64,000 nucleotides of DNA, taken from the IMG/VR virus record IMGVR_UViG_3300009159_000035; one strand, given 5' to 3'. Under the pieces are notes generated by a model that made no database searches, had not been told where the DNA came from, and saw nothing but the letters and a program-made list of their open reading frames with translations. Each line of letters begins with the position of its first letter. Position 1 is the stretch's first letter. Shown one piece after another: positions 3,937 through 38,632 of the stretch. Origin of the DNA: a virus. Position numbers and translations under genes: made by a program.

Positions 3937-4014
3937 GCCCTCTTGGCGGAATTGGTAGACGCGCTAGACTTAGGATCTAGTCTTCGGGTAAGAGTTCGAG
4001 TCTCTTAGAGGGTA
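3937..4014 (+). tRNA. tRNA-Leu (anticodon TAG)
   Basis: Acceptor GCCCTCT/AGAGGGT, D arm GGCGGAATTGGTAGACGC, anticodon stem CTAGA-CTTAGGA-TCTAG, T arm AAGAG-TTCGAGT-CTCTT; no encoded CCA. Confidence 0.93.
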
Positions 4015-4034
4015 CAAATTGGTATAATATAATT

Positions 4035-13539: not shown

Positions 13540-15102
13540 ATGAGTAAAATTATTAAATCATATCCAGAGTTTTTAGCTGAAAACTTAAACCAAAATGAAG
13601 GATTTAGGGATATTGCAAAAAAGGCAGTAGGCTCAATTAAAAAATTCTTTGGAAATGGCGCAAACTATTTAACCGCACTAGCTGCCCAAATTAGTGGAAA
13701 GCAGTCAAATGATGGTGCTGATGATACAATTCCATATGGTGTAACAATTTACCCAGCAGCATCTGATTTACAAGAAATTGGAGCAGATAATAATTACTCG
13801 CCGGAAGGGCTTGATGAAAATTTAATAGATGAAGAAGCTGTTCCATTAGAAGCTGGCGAAAGTATTGGTGGAGTTAGAAATGTTGACTATGATGGTTTAA
13901 TGAGAATTGTTAAACGAATTGCAAATAATCCAGATAAAGGAGAAGAAGCACCACTTATGATTTGGGGAGCTCCCGGTATTGGTAAAACTGCAATTGTTAA
14001 ACAGGTTCAAAAAATGCTAGGCGGTAGAATGATTGATGTTCAATTAACTACGTATGCACCAGAAGATTTCTTTTTACCAGTAGTTGATCCAGCAACTAAT
14101 GACAATATAATGAGTCGTAGAGCTTCAAGGGTTCCACAAAAATGGTTACCTGTATATAATGAAAGTGAAGGAGACGAAGGTAATACAAAAGCAAATGGCC
14201 CAGACGGAATGGGTGGAATGATATTTATGGATGAGTTATCCAGAGCATCTGAAGCAATTAGAAATATTGCCCTAAAATTTGTATTAGACAGAGAATTAGA
14301 CGGAGGTTGGAAATTAGGAAGCAAATGGACAATATTTGCAGCGTCTAACCGTCAAGAAGATGATTTAACAAATTCTCAAGATTTTGGTACCGCATTAGGT
14401 AATCGTTTTCAACAGGTAAATTACGTGCCAGATACTAAGACTTATGGAAAATATGCATCAGCTCAAACTGATTCAAGTGGAGTTGATACATTTGACCCAC
14501 TTATTATATCATTCTTACAATGGTCTAAAGGTAAAGAATTTTTTCATAAAATGGATGCAAGAGCGGTTGCCTTTCCTAGTCCAAGATCTTGGGAAAAAGC
14601 TGCAATTGCTTGGAAAAATTTGAAAAAAGAAGCAGAGGCAGAAGGTTATCAATTAAGTGATAAAATGATTGAAGATGAAGCTCTAGCTCCAAATGTTGGA
14701 ACTGAAGCAGCTACTGCATTTATTGCATACTATCTTTTATCTAAGAAAATTGACTTAAAGAATCTTTATAAAGTTTATACTGAGCCAGATAATGCACCAC
14801 TTCCATCAAAAACCAGAAATGATGATTATGAATTGGACGTTGCATACATCTTAGCTTCAGCAATTGCATATGAGCATAGAGGTAAAAAATTAGATAATAC
14901 TGAAATTGAAAATGTAGCTAAATATGCAATTCGAATTAATAATCCAACTGTTGCAATGCAAATAATGGGTGCACTAATTGAAATTCACCCATACTTAAAG
15001 ACTTCCGGTACTCCAGAATTTGAAGCTTATCGTATTGCAATGAGACCGTTTTTAGCAGCATATCCGGGTTCAGCAAAGGATATTCAAAATTTAGAAAACT
15101 AA
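13540..15102 (+). CDS. MoxR-like AAA+ ATPase with CTS-like leader
   Basis: WGAPGIGKT, IFMDELSRA, AASNR, ALGNRF, FPSPRSWE; late motif at 13511. Confidence 0.88.
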   Translation: MSKIIKSYPEFLAENLNQNEGFRDIAKKAVGSIKKFFGNGANYLTALAAQISGKQSNDGADDTIPYGVTIYPAASDLQEIGADNNYSPEGLDENLIDEEAVPLEAGESIGGVRNVDYDGLMRIVKRIANNPDKGEEAPLMIWGAPGIGKTAIVKQVQKMLGGRMIDVQLTTYAPEDFFLPVVDPATNDNIMSRRASRVPQKWLPVYNESEGDEGNTKANGPDGMGGMIFMDELSRASEAIRNIALKFVLDRELDGGWKLGSKWTIFAASNRQEDDLTNSQDFGTALGNRFQQVNYVPDTKTYGKYASAQTDSSGVDTFDPLIISFLQWSKGKEFFHKMDARAVAFPSPRSWEKAAIAWKNLKKEAEAEGYQLSDKMIEDEALAPNVGTEAATAFIAYYLLSKKIDLKNLYKVYTEPDNAPLPSKTRNDDYELDVAYILASAIAYEHRGKKLDNTEIENVAKYAIRINNPTVAMQIMGALIEIHPYLKTSGTPEFEAYRIAMRPFLAAYPGSAKDIQNLEN

Positions 15103-15103
15103 A

Positions 15104-15859
15104 ATGAAGAAATTATTGGATTGGAATGATTATCATAAGTATGCAGATTTTACAAAGTCTGACTTGATACTTGAGGCAGAAGAGTCTGATCCAGTGTTAA
15201 AGAAGGTAAAAATAAAAGTAGATTATGCAATTAGAAAAGTTGCAGTTAAATATAAATTTTTTGCCGATCTTACTTATAAGTTAAGAATTATCTACACTAG
15301 ACAGATTAAAACCGCAGCCGTTGATGGAACAAATATGTTTATTAATCCAGACTTTTTTGAACCGCTAACTGAAGATCAAATTGTATTTATTGTATGTCAT
15401 GAAGTTATGCACTGTGCACTATTTCATTTTGCACGTATTCAAGGTAGAGATGGATATCGCTGGAATATTGCTGGCGACTATGAAATAAACTGGTTATTAT
15501 CAGAAGATGGAATTCTATCATATGACGAGATTAAGAATACTTTACGCGGTATGATTGAAAAATCCTATGCTGGTAAAAATGCTGAACAGTTATACGAAGA
15601 TCCGGAAATGATAGTTCCACCAAAGGAAGAAGATCAAGAACAAGACACTACTGCTGGAGGTCAACAAGACGGAGATCCTCCTCCGGGTGGTGGAGGTAAA
15701 AAACCCAAAGAGGGCTTATTTCCTGGCAATATTATATACGACAAATCTAGCGGATCTTATGGTAAAGTTAATTCAATTGATAAAACAACTGGTGAAGTTG
15801 ATTTTTCACCATTAAGCAAACAAGAAGCTGAAATTGAATTGAAAAAACTTAAAGCTTAA
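15104..15859 (+). CDS. DUF2201-type N-terminal metallopeptidase-like protein
   Basis: TAAVDG...INPDF, HEVMH, WNIAGDYEIN. Confidence 0.82.
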   Translation: MKKLLDWNDYHKYADFTKSDLILEAEESDPVLKKVKIKVDYAIRKVAVKYKFFADLTYKLRIIYTRQIKTAAVDGTNMFINPDFFEPLTEDQIVFIVCHEVMHCALFHFARIQGRDGYRWNIAGDYEINWLLSEDGILSYDEIKNTLRGMIEKSYAGKNAEQLYEDPEMIVPPKEEDQEQDTTAGGQQDGDPPPGGGGKKPKEGLFPGNIIYDKSSGSYGKVNSIDKTTGEVDFSPLSKQEAEIELKKLKA

Positions 15860-15863
15860 TAAT

Positions 15864-17015
15864 ATGAAAACAAACTTATCTAATATAGTTAAATTAGTAA
15901 ATCCGAATGGTGCAAAAGGCGGAGGCAAAGGAGAAAGTGGAGAAGAATCAACTGATAATGGTATTGAAACTAAGACCTTAGAGAAACCTGAAGAATTAGG
16001 CGGTGGTACTGGAGAAGAAGAAGAAGAAGGTAAAGAAGAAGAAGGTAAAGAAGAAGAAGAAAAAGAAGGTTCTGGAAAAGGTAAAGGTAAACCTGGAAAA
16101 GAAAAAGGCAAAGGCTCAGGTGAAGGCGAATCTGAAGGAGATGGGCCAATGGTAGATGCAGATGATATTAATAATATTGAATCAAATAAAAATGTTGTTG
16201 TTCGAAATGATGTCCGTGCAGGAAAAGGCCAAGGTAAAGTAGTTGGACGAGGCACAGGCGAAGTTATTTCACCAGCTGAAGGTAATCGTATTGCTAAATC
16301 AGAAGGATATGATGAGCGTAGCCCACGTACAGAAGAGGAATGGAAGAAGGATGCAAGAACATCGGCTCAAACAAATCTTTCTAAACGAACCAAAAACATT
16401 GGTAGCGGAGCAGGAGCAATATATCAAAGGATTATGGAGCTTACTGATCCAATTGTAGATTGGCGAGCTGAATTACGTAGATTTATAGGTAAACTTGCAA
16501 GTTCATCAGATTTTAAATTTCCAGCACGAAGATCAATTGGGTCAGGTGATTATCGCTATGGTATTAAATCCAAAAATAATGCTCTGGAAAATGGAATAAT
16601 TGCAATTGACGTAAGTGGATCAATTGCATCGGCTTTTCCAGAACTATTAGCTGAGGTTGTTGGAATTGCAAGCGCAAAGAAAATAAAGGAAATATCAGTT
16701 TTACCATGGAATGATAGAGTAGTTACTCCAGTAATATTTAAAAATTTTAAAAAACCAACCCCAGTTGATTTTGAAAAGGTTTCAACTGGTGGAGGTTCAA
16801 ATGGAATGCCGGATGTTATGCGCTGGATTCAGAATAATGTAAAAGATCGCCCAGACTTTGTAGTTATTATAACGGATGGATTTATTCCAACTCTACCTAC
16901 TGCTCCTAAATGGGGTAGGAAAACCATTTGGCTAATATTTGATAATAACTCATTTGATGTACCTGCCGGTTGGGGTCAAGTTATTCATGCAAAAGGCGAT
17001 GAACGCTATAAATAA
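15864..17015 (+). CDS. VWA-like (DUF2201 C-terminal) protein with G/E/K-rich N-terminus
   Basis: VDWRAELRRF, MIDAS-like IDVSGSI, GGG, IITDG, IWLI. Confidence 0.82.
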   Translation: MKTNLSNIVKLVNPNGAKGGGKGESGEESTDNGIETKTLEKPEELGGGTGEEEEEGKEEEGKEEEEKEGSGKGKGKPGKEKGKGSGEGESEGDGPMVDADDINNIESNKNVVVRNDVRAGKGQGKVVGRGTGEVISPAEGNRIAKSEGYDERSPRTEEEWKKDARTSAQTNLSKRTKNIGSGAGAIYQRIMELTDPIVDWRAELRRFIGKLASSSDFKFPARRSIGSGDYRYGIKSKNNALENGIIAIDVSGSIASAFPELLAEVVGIASAKKIKEISVLPWNDRVVTPVIFKNFKKPTPVDFEKVSTGGGSNGMPDVMRWIQNNVKDRPDFVVIITDGFIPTLPTAPKWGRKTIWLIFDNNSFDVPAGWGQVIHAKGDERYK

Positions 17016-17045
17016 AAACTTTTTAACTAATTAGAGTTAAATAAT

Positions 17046-17128
17046 ACTGGAAACATAGAGCCTCGCTCTGTTTGTCTCGGGTTTACGAGCCCTTGAGTAA
17101 TCAATAGAAGGTTACAATGAGATAAGCA
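17046..17128 (+). ncRNA. Structured 5' leader: long-range pairing arm plus three-way junction
   Basis: TGTTTGTCTC (17069-78) pairs with GAGATAAGCA (17119-28) and encloses the GGGTT-TACG-AGCCC and GTAATC-AATAGAA-GGTTAC hairpins. Confidence 0.55.
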
Positions 17129-17146
17129 TAAAATAACACAACTCTT

Positions 17147-17893
17147 ATGTACCAACAAAACATCACAACTAGTGGGTCTACTGCAGTTTACACAAGCTTC
17201 AGTAATCCACAACCATCTGCAACAATCACAAAAGGCAGAGGAAGACTAAAAACCTACGGGTCAAATGTCTATTTAAAAGACGGTTCAAATTTCGAAATTG
17301 AACTCTACAATCCAAAAACAACATCAGTATTAGCAAAAATCTGGGTCAATGGTCAAGTACTATCGGCTGCCGGTATTGTGATAAGACCTGGGCAAAGGGT
17401 CTATCTGGAAAGATTCATTGATGTTGCTAAAAAATTCAAGTTTACAACATATGAGGTTGATGACTCTAGCCAAACCAAATTAGCAATTGCAAATAATGGT
17501 AAGGTTGAAGTTCTGTTCTATGATGAATCTATTTCATATCAACCTCCGGTAATGCTTTATGGTAATACAATTACAACCAATTACTATAATCAACCTAGCA
17601 CGTTAACTGTTGGCGGAAGCGCTGGCGTCTTTACCTGCAGCTCAAGCATTTCAGCTAACTCAGTTGAGACGGGTATTGTTGAAAAAGGCGGAAGTTCTAA
17701 ACAGCAATTTTCTAATACCTATGGTAATTTTAACTCATGGACTTGTGCAACCAGTACCTGGCAAATTTTACCAGAAAGTAAAAAACCCGTTGAAATGGGA
17801 GAAATTCGCTCCTATTGCACAGGCTGTGGAACCCGCCATAAAAAAGCAACTTGGAAATTCTGCCCTAATTGTGGAATTCCAGTAACTGAATAA
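17147..17893 (+). CDS. Hypothetical protein with beta-rich N-domain and C-terminal double Zn ribbon
   Basis: FEIELYNP...IRPGQRVYLERF...NGKVEV; CTGCG...CPNCG. Confidence 0.8.
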   Translation: MYQQNITTSGSTAVYTSFSNPQPSATITKGRGRLKTYGSNVYLKDGSNFEIELYNPKTTSVLAKIWVNGQVLSAAGIVIRPGQRVYLERFIDVAKKFKFTTYEVDDSSQTKLAIANNGKVEVLFYDESISYQPPVMLYGNTITTNYYNQPSTLTVGGSAGVFTCSSSISANSVETGIVEKGGSSKQQFSNTYGNFNSWTCATSTWQILPESKKPVEMGEIRSYCTGCGTRHKKATWKFCPNCGIPVTE

Positions 17894-17962
17894 CAATTAG
17901 TCCTAAGCGAGGCTCTATTTGTTCCAGTTTGCAAGATAAATAAACTTAAATTATTTAATAAA

Positions 17963-18667: not shown

Positions 18668-18688
18668 CGGTTCTTTATTTTTTTTTTG

Positions 18689-18717
18689 AAAAGTCCCAAT
18701 TTGTTGGGACTTTTTTT
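18689..18717 (+). terminator. Rho-independent terminator
   Basis: AAAAGTCCCAA-TTTG-TTGGGACTTTT + T tract. Confidence 0.85.
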
Positions 18718-38560: not shown

Positions 38561-38632
38561 TACGGACTTAGGACCGTAATAGCCTCGGCTATTTGAACCT
38601 CTCGATATCGCTATCCGAGAGGTTCTTCGTTT
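38561..38632 (+). ncRNA. Three-hairpin intergenic structured element ending in a terminator-like hairpin
   Basis: TACGG-ACTTAGGA-CCGTA; ATAGC-CTCG-GCTAT; GAACCTCTCG-ATATCGCTATC-CGAGAGGTTC + T-rich tail. Confidence 0.55.

Follow-up and report, generated by a model that had tools for sequence, protein, structure and literature searches.

Layout of the locus

The stretch of DNA considered here, referred to as the window, comprises 64,000 nt of AT-rich DNA from a T4-like large phage. Within it a gene for a 248-aa protein (17147..17893, + strand), recognised by fold prediction and by a Zn-ribbon match, is flanked by a MoxR/DUF2201 cluster on one side and a short acidic ORF on the other. Ahead of the gene lies a T4-late-type promoter-like box, TAAATAAT, which has a TAAATA core and is read from the sequence at 17038..17045 (+), and the transcript is predicted to start at ~17046; in homologs a TAAATA/TATAAT-like box is found mostly 18-32 nt upstream of P1, the first helix of the leader. 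The leader, on the same strand, consists of a 5' arm or switch strand (17046..17068), whose partner is either a 3' arm beyond the gene, in the stem called P0, or the start-codon region; a three-way-junction RNA (17069..17128), defined by covariation, RNAalifold and a covariance model; and an A-rich translation-initiation region that includes the start codon (17129..17154), defined by pairing probability and family-wide covariation. The 3' arm of P0 (17906..17928, +) starts 13 nt past the stop codon and is identified by sequence, folding and comparison. A second late-promoter-like box, again seen in the sequence, lies at 17935..17945 (+) and probably serves the next gene (17963), marking the unit's boundary; beyond the 3' arm, no terminator-like site appears until 18688-18715, two genes further on. 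When the 896-nt unit is folded, the long-range stem and the junction both form, with z = -5.5 against 20 shuffles. A first-pass annotation of the window had placed both arms with their 13-bp and 7-bp blocks, the ORF and the promoter-like box exactly where they are found here.

The homologs come from viral and metagenome collections and amount to 189 loci, or 108 once near-copies are removed; annotated phages among their sources include Prevotella Lak phages and other huge phages. The neighbours at the 108 non-redundant loci comprise 204 genes in 108 families, with no conserved neighbour, and since they vary in this way the unit behaves as a free-standing cassette. The Zn-ribbon gene is single-copy wherever tested.

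The genes for a MoxR-type AAA ATPase, a DUF2201 metallopeptidase and a vWA protein occupy 13540-17015 (+) of the window, with the DUF2201 halves encoded by two separate ORFs. This block is not directly upstream of the gene in L001, a 98%-identical relative, nor in L006 or L010, from which it follows that it was gained or lost recently; the close relatives have another gene upstream of the Zn-ribbon gene. The window also holds one tRNA-Leu (anticodon UAG) at 3937-4015 (+).

The encoded protein

The predicted model of the protein (pLDDT 85.5) consists of an Ig-like beta-sandwich, formed by residues ~20-130 and 170-213 and split by a low-complexity, disordered loop, followed by a C-terminal C4 Zn ribbon. 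At 50% identity its family (E up to 0.001) takes in 1,672 clusters; among Atlas clusters, the closest have a viral share of 96-100%. In Pfam only the C-terminal Zn ribbon matches, mostly below the cut-off, and no Pfam, PHROG or NCBIfam family was found beyond that ribbon. The homologs have a median pI of 8.5 and retain a Lys or Arg at ~18 positions, properties that fit nucleic-acid binding. Fused longer forms of the protein were absent among the 565-2000 aa candidates, which is weak evidence.

Solved structures gave nothing by sequence and, by fold, just a generic Ig-like resemblance (best Z 6.5). The BFVD set of predicted viral structures gave 22 matches (E up to 0.001), and the structural matches include proteins of pithovirus, mimiviruses and nudiviruses, ISKNV ORF098, granulovirus p22.2, WSSV wsv390 and ranavirus ICP-18. 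ICP18 (18K), ISKNV ORF098, p22.2, wsv390 and the giant-virus proteins have the same predicted fold as the phage protein (Foldseek E 2e-9 to 6e-4, probability 1.0), where predicted models are compared with predicted models at 10-19% identity and TM-scores by query of 0.33-0.51 for the ICP18/p22.2/wsv390 group, and where the phage protein differs in its added C-terminal Zn ribbon. Ranavirus 18K, an immediate-early product without an assigned role, can be lost in culture but is needed in vivo (PMC3205390). The ESM Atlas provides leads only, to a mostly Nucleocytoviricota cluster (0.91) and to a cluster in which DUF7918 accounts for 10% of members (0.80). The phage protein offers a handle on a viral fold that phages share with the large DNA viruses of eukaryotes.

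A three-way-junction RNA in the leader

The junction was derived by aligning 62 diverse leaders on sequence alone. It is closed by P1 (17069-78/17119-28, 10 bp), which leads into P2 (17079-92, 5 bp), a 4-nt linker between P2 and P3, and P3 itself, which spans 17097-17115 with 6 bp (17097-17102 with 17110-17115) and is followed by a 3-nt A-rich linker, AAU at 17116-18 in the window. The 4-nt linker is UUGA in the window (17093-96) and UUGA, UAGA, UGGA or UCGA in 97 of the 108 loci. Two-sided changes occur at all 21 junction pairs, with 92% of cells paired, and the covariation score of 0.78 compares with 0.28 for shuffled alignments and at most 0.23 for slid controls; RNAalifold returns the identical structure. 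The three-way junction proposed in the first-pass annotation is thus upheld pair by pair across the family, which is not the case for two of the details attached to it: the UACG loop capping one hairpin varies freely in homologs, and the GUAA-tetraloop alternative of the second hairpin is gone already in close ones. Since the junction loops in general vary freely, both details are incidental. At five junction positions G·U or U·G predominates, and these conserved wobbles fix the strand and the RNA level for the junction. Each of its helices tends to carry a G-C pair and then a U·G wobble (alignment columns 48-49, 59-60 and 82-83), a repeated step that is a possible recognition element.

The Rfam comparison that the first-pass annotation had named as a check gave no match for the junction: the window region returned chance matches only (best E 0.3), none of them on the leader structure, 20 homologous loci returned only tRNAs, and in neither set did any riboswitch, ribozyme or leader family reach its gathering score. 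The motif and its architecture are undescribed in the literature searched, in which a catalogue of 10,006 candidate viral RNAs, accessible in part (PMC10690425), may list the junction unnamed. On comparative grounds the junction is a real, strongly covarying RNA element, widespread and apparently uncatalogued.

The association of this RNA with the gene is strict. A covariance model, which matches the window junction at E 3e-13, detects the motif a single time in the window and a single time per genome in four complete phage genomes, in every case at this gene and with no second copy; a regulon reading was rejected on that single copy per genome. When the search was started from the RNA, all 29 pattern matches that fold as the junction precede a Zn-ribbon gene, as against none of the 142 matches without the junction fold. 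Across the window, the complete genomes and the RNA-first matches the junction occurs only in the 5' UTRs of a single protein family, and it is also found before distant homologs, including those of Lak phages and of a 735-kb phage. An RNA family absent from Rfam is in this way tied to a protein family of more than 1,600 clusters in freshwater, marine and gut jumbo phages, Lak included.

The gut megaphages Lak-C1 (L194 1401-1466) and Lak-B5 (L195 1346-1451) have AT-rich junction leaders, which score weakly with the model and show the same fold by eye; no clear 3' arm is present in either.

The long-range stem P0

P0 joins 17046-67 with 17906-28 through a 13-bp block (17055-67/17906-18) and a 7-bp block (17046-52/17922-28). 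The inverted repeat had first been singled out for its perfect blocks and its GC-richness in an AT-rich genome, and only the second of these grounds holds: five perfect 13-bp inverted repeats with 300-1500 nt spacing are seen in the window against 4.5 expected, whereas a 13-bp repeat with at least 7 G+C never arose in 30 shuffles. Because the 13-bp repeat alone is within chance, reliance is placed on the comparison of homologs. Of the 108 non-redundant loci, 80 have P0; their arms form 15 unrelated families with no 7-mer in common, and P0 scores 20-31 with the locus's own 3' flank, while cross-family combinations average 12.5 and only 2% of them reach 20. The covariation looked for in the first-pass annotation is therefore present in the long-range stem, but about a quarter of the loci (28/108) lack P0 near the stop codon, and in most of these the 5' arm folds locally into a small hairpin instead. 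P0 is, by this comparison, real but not universal. Both its loss and the arm families are scattered on a quick version of the protein tree, which serves only to show that scatter.

The earlier argument that G-U pairs favour pairing at the RNA level stands for the junction with its wobbles but less so for P0, whose cores contain 6 G·U against 0 A·C, with no bias at helix ends; the RNA-level evidence from P0 itself appears modest, and the strong evidence of this kind is the junction's. In folding models P0 has an energy of ~-12 to -33 kcal/mol and forms at P 0.85-1.0 in the full-length message.

The placement of the arms is constrained on both sides of the gene. The gap between the 5' arm and P1 is 0-9 nt and the end of P1 lies 12-36 nt ahead of the start codon, while the 3' arm starts 6-22 nt past the stop codon (median 10.5, one outlier at 33) and never less than 6 nt from it, though the search reached into the ORF. 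Judged by ribosome footprints, this position falls just beyond the reach of a terminating ribosome, so that P0 could persist during translation. A terminator follows the 3' arm in 37 of the 80 P0-positive loci, and the first-pass view of the whole mRNA closed into a stem fits only these; in the window there is none directly behind the arm, and the late-promoter-like box lies there instead.

Several other readings of the flanks were rejected. Ribozymes (twister, pistol, hairpin and hammerhead) had no Rfam support, and the GUCCUAAGCG stretch ahead of the 3' arm that prompted these readings is not conserved in homologs. A retron, with its a1/a2 repeats and msr-msd, was set aside since the repeats here enclose the ORF and the neighbours are MoxR/DUF2201 and small unknowns, with no reverse transcriptase.

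At two loci a GIY-YIG-like endonuclease ORF has entered the unit. In L373 (2583-3293, -) it is inserted in frame after ~19 codons of the gene, such that the free-standing endonuclease ORF takes over the leader and the full gene restarts downstream. In L023 (3853-4764, -) it entered on the opposite strand just past the stop codon, and the perfect 14-bp 3' arm has been pushed 967 nt downstream, ahead of the old terminator.

Pairing of the 5' arm with the start-codon region

A third pairing, missed in the first-pass annotation, joins the 5' arm to the start-codon region. Its probability in the window, for 17048-57 with 17146-54, is 0.84 in the leader alone and 0.00 with the 3' flank; in this start-paired state the arm also makes a small local hairpin (17058-61/17065-68). 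The pairing was assessed in 34 P0-positive leader representatives by exchanging the region from -16 to +5 between families. The own start region beats those of other families in 31 of the 34 (mean -6.6 vs -4.0 kcal/mol, p ~1e-8), strictly unrelated families agree on the pairing in 9 cases out of 10 (p 0.004) and P0-less loci mostly keep it (7/9, p 0.055), p-values that overstate independence, the homologs being related; eight control offsets inside the ORF showed no own-versus-swapped effect. The bases involved fall mostly within the P0 arm in 28/34 representatives, and the partners change together between lineages, as CCUG/CAGG, UCUGG/CCAGA, CUCGU/ACGAG and UUAACU/AGUUAA, with one lineage pairing CAUAG with CUAUG across the start codon itself. 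The pairing is short, at ~-6 to -7 kcal/mol, and is mutually exclusive with P0. Covariation thus shows three pairings in the unit, namely the junction, P0 and that of the arm with the start region.

In models of the leader alone, 7 of 10 P0-positive examples have the start region paired at P 0.6-1.0, a value that falls to at most 0.02 on addition of the 3' flank; the effect is weak in the other 3. According to these models the leader would close over the start codon when the 3' arm is missing, and P0 would remove the arm from it. In global folds of the whole transcript the start region is mostly unpaired when the 3' arm is present, and its average accessibility is unchanged with or without that arm; the effect appears only in leader-only models, and with the whole-transcript folds flat its size is uncertain.

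Where a Shine-Dalgarno sequence is missing, an unpaired start region becomes important. Such sequences are usually absent in Bacteroidetes (PMC9723584), an argument that applies here through the Prevotella Lak homologs and not through the window phage's own host.

A proposed completion-gated switch and its alternatives

With slightly better than even confidence we read the unit as a completion-gated, two-state cis mRNA switch built around the new three-way-junction RNA, a function that we infer from covariation and folding models. Covariation and modelling suggest that, as the leader is made, the junction would fold and the 5' arm would close over the start region. Ribosomes would then load poorly, allowing transcription to outrun translation. 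As the 3' arm emerges, the stronger P0 would, on the same covariation and models, take the 5' arm and free the start region, and the looped message could be translated with P0 beyond the reach of the ribosome and perhaps shielding the 5' end. Finally, the encoded protein may bind the junction, favour the closed form and limit its own level. As the nascent message would be silent and would come on only once the polymerase has passed the stop codon, protein would be made from complete messages only and translation would be uncoupled from transcription. A fold-back translational switch was among the options of the first-pass annotation, and it gains comparative support here; its polarity, which had been left unstated, would be that the end-paired form frees the start codon. 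The tail cannot act as the trigger at the 28 of 108 loci where no P0 lies close to the stop codon.

The chances are about even that the encoded basic protein binds at the junction and would in this way limit its own synthesis. Such autoregulation would explain why the junction is universal and P0 is not, and RNA binding would then be the first molecular function for the uncharacterised ICP18/p22.2/wsv390 fold. The combination of the two, where a message is activated when it pairs with its own 3' UTR and its new junction is bound by the protein, as an undescribed jumbo-phage module, is put forward only tentatively. If the switch is true, a bacterial-type message would be licensed for translation by its own completion, a use of closed-loop logic that has so far been known mainly as repressive, and it would offer a simple, testable case of enforced transcription-translation uncoupling.

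An alternative, which we regard as unlikely, is that P0 mainly acts as a clamp that guards the 5' end and the leader from ribonucleases, with the start-region pairing secondary. The predicted transcript start coincides with the beginning of the 5' arm, P0 forms with high probability in full-length models, lineages without it often carry a local 5' hairpin instead, and there is precedent in the 14-bp 5'/3' UTR interaction of B. subtilis hbs (PMC5737220). The clamp nevertheless leaves the position-specific, covarying pairing of the arm with the start region and the universal junction unexplained, and protection could also come as a side benefit of the switch.

It is improbable that P0 stacks on the junction to form an RNA-protein particle, with the ORF looped out and the protein bound, or that the RNA is ligated into a circle. 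The strict 1:1 link of RNA and gene, the abutment of P0 on P1, the basic protein and the G-C/U·G steps repeated in all three helices would suit such an object, but the ends that would be ligated show no sequence conservation, roughly one locus in four is without P0, the window transcript probably continues beyond the 3' arm, and the pairing of the arm with the start region indicates translation control; no support was found for the circularised or processed RNA suggested in the first-pass annotation. We give marginally less credence again to a riboswitch-like junction that senses a small molecule, ion or host protein and tips the arm between its partners. The junction is compact and conserved, with an invariant G and A and conserved wobbles, and adjoins an alternative pairing over the start codon, yet it has few invariant unpaired nucleotides, has no match to an Rfam riboswitch and controls just one gene family, which is more typical of autoregulatory leaders. 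An origin at the DNA level, as transposon ends or inversion sites, or by chance, is already largely refuted and very improbable: the gene neighbourhood is variable and P0 scores nearly as well on the other strand (26.2 vs 27.5), but the 15 unrelated arm sequences that change between lineages, the single copy per genome, the fixed spacing to P1 and the stop codon, the G·U-rich junction on one strand, the protein without a transposase fold and the lack of a recombinase among common neighbours all argue against it.

Relation to known systems

The completion-gated switch has its nearest relatives among mRNAs whose ends pair, and E. coli hok is a type I toxin mRNA with such a 5'-3' long-distance interaction. 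In H. pylori aapA3 (PMC6733600) the nascent message is silenced by weak structures over the initiation region, as proposed here, and a later 5'-3' long-distance helix, translation uncoupled from transcription and covariation support are likewise found in both. The full-length, end-paired form of aapA3 is, however, inert and requires 3' trimming (PMC6733600). The present unit has the 5'-3' pairing of the hok/aapA type and, as judged computationally, the co-transcriptional structure that hides the initiation region, but it lacks an end-paired form that hides this region and a small hydrophobic toxin: its end-paired form is predicted to be active where those of aapA3 and hok are inert, its product is a 248-aa soluble protein rather than a small hydrophobic membrane toxin, and it has a conserved three-way junction, unlike hok/aapA. 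A search of the window for an antisense antitoxin found neither flank repeated over more than 12 nt.

B. subtilis hbs resembles the unit in having a ~14-bp helix between both UTRs of the mRNA for a basic protein, which in that one species modulates RNase Y cleavage (PMC5737220); here, by contrast, one arm switches between P0 and the start-codon region and borders on a conserved junction, and the arrangement, with compensatory changes, is repeated across many phages. The T4 gp32 pseudoknot and the candidate GP20/GP32 leaders (PMC10690425) are structured cis elements that sit immediately upstream of a single protein family and nowhere else, as here, and in both cases the linked protein looks able to bind nucleic acid. 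From those leaders the unit differs in its structure, in the added long-range switch and in that binding is only predicted. The unit is best read, from the comparative and modelling evidence, as mRNA end-pairing control with reversed logic.

A conserved element at 38.56 kb

A conserved three-hairpin intergenic element that ends in a U tract lies elsewhere in the window, at 38561-38632 (+), and is a candidate small RNA that appears unrelated to the Zn-ribbon gene. It has no Rfam family, the search giving a weak Twister-P5 match (E 0.31) on the other strand. Hairpin 1 and the linker read CUUAGGACCGUUAUAG in six relatives, with one mismatch in the window, and this segment and loop 3 (UCGCUAYC) are complementary to two adjacent conserved segments of 23S rRNA, in a stretch that we take to be helix 69-70 and that contains the I-CeuI site. 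An action in trans on the 3' flank of the Zn-ribbon gene was rejected because the hairpin is unchanged where a genome's flank lacks the complement, its conservation being better explained by the complementarity to 23S rRNA. One possibility is that the element serves the phage as an antisense RNA against the ribosome; another is an rRNA mimic on the opposite strand. Viral contigs contain 17 exact matches to its pattern, in which stems 2 and 3 vary while the complementary parts are fixed.
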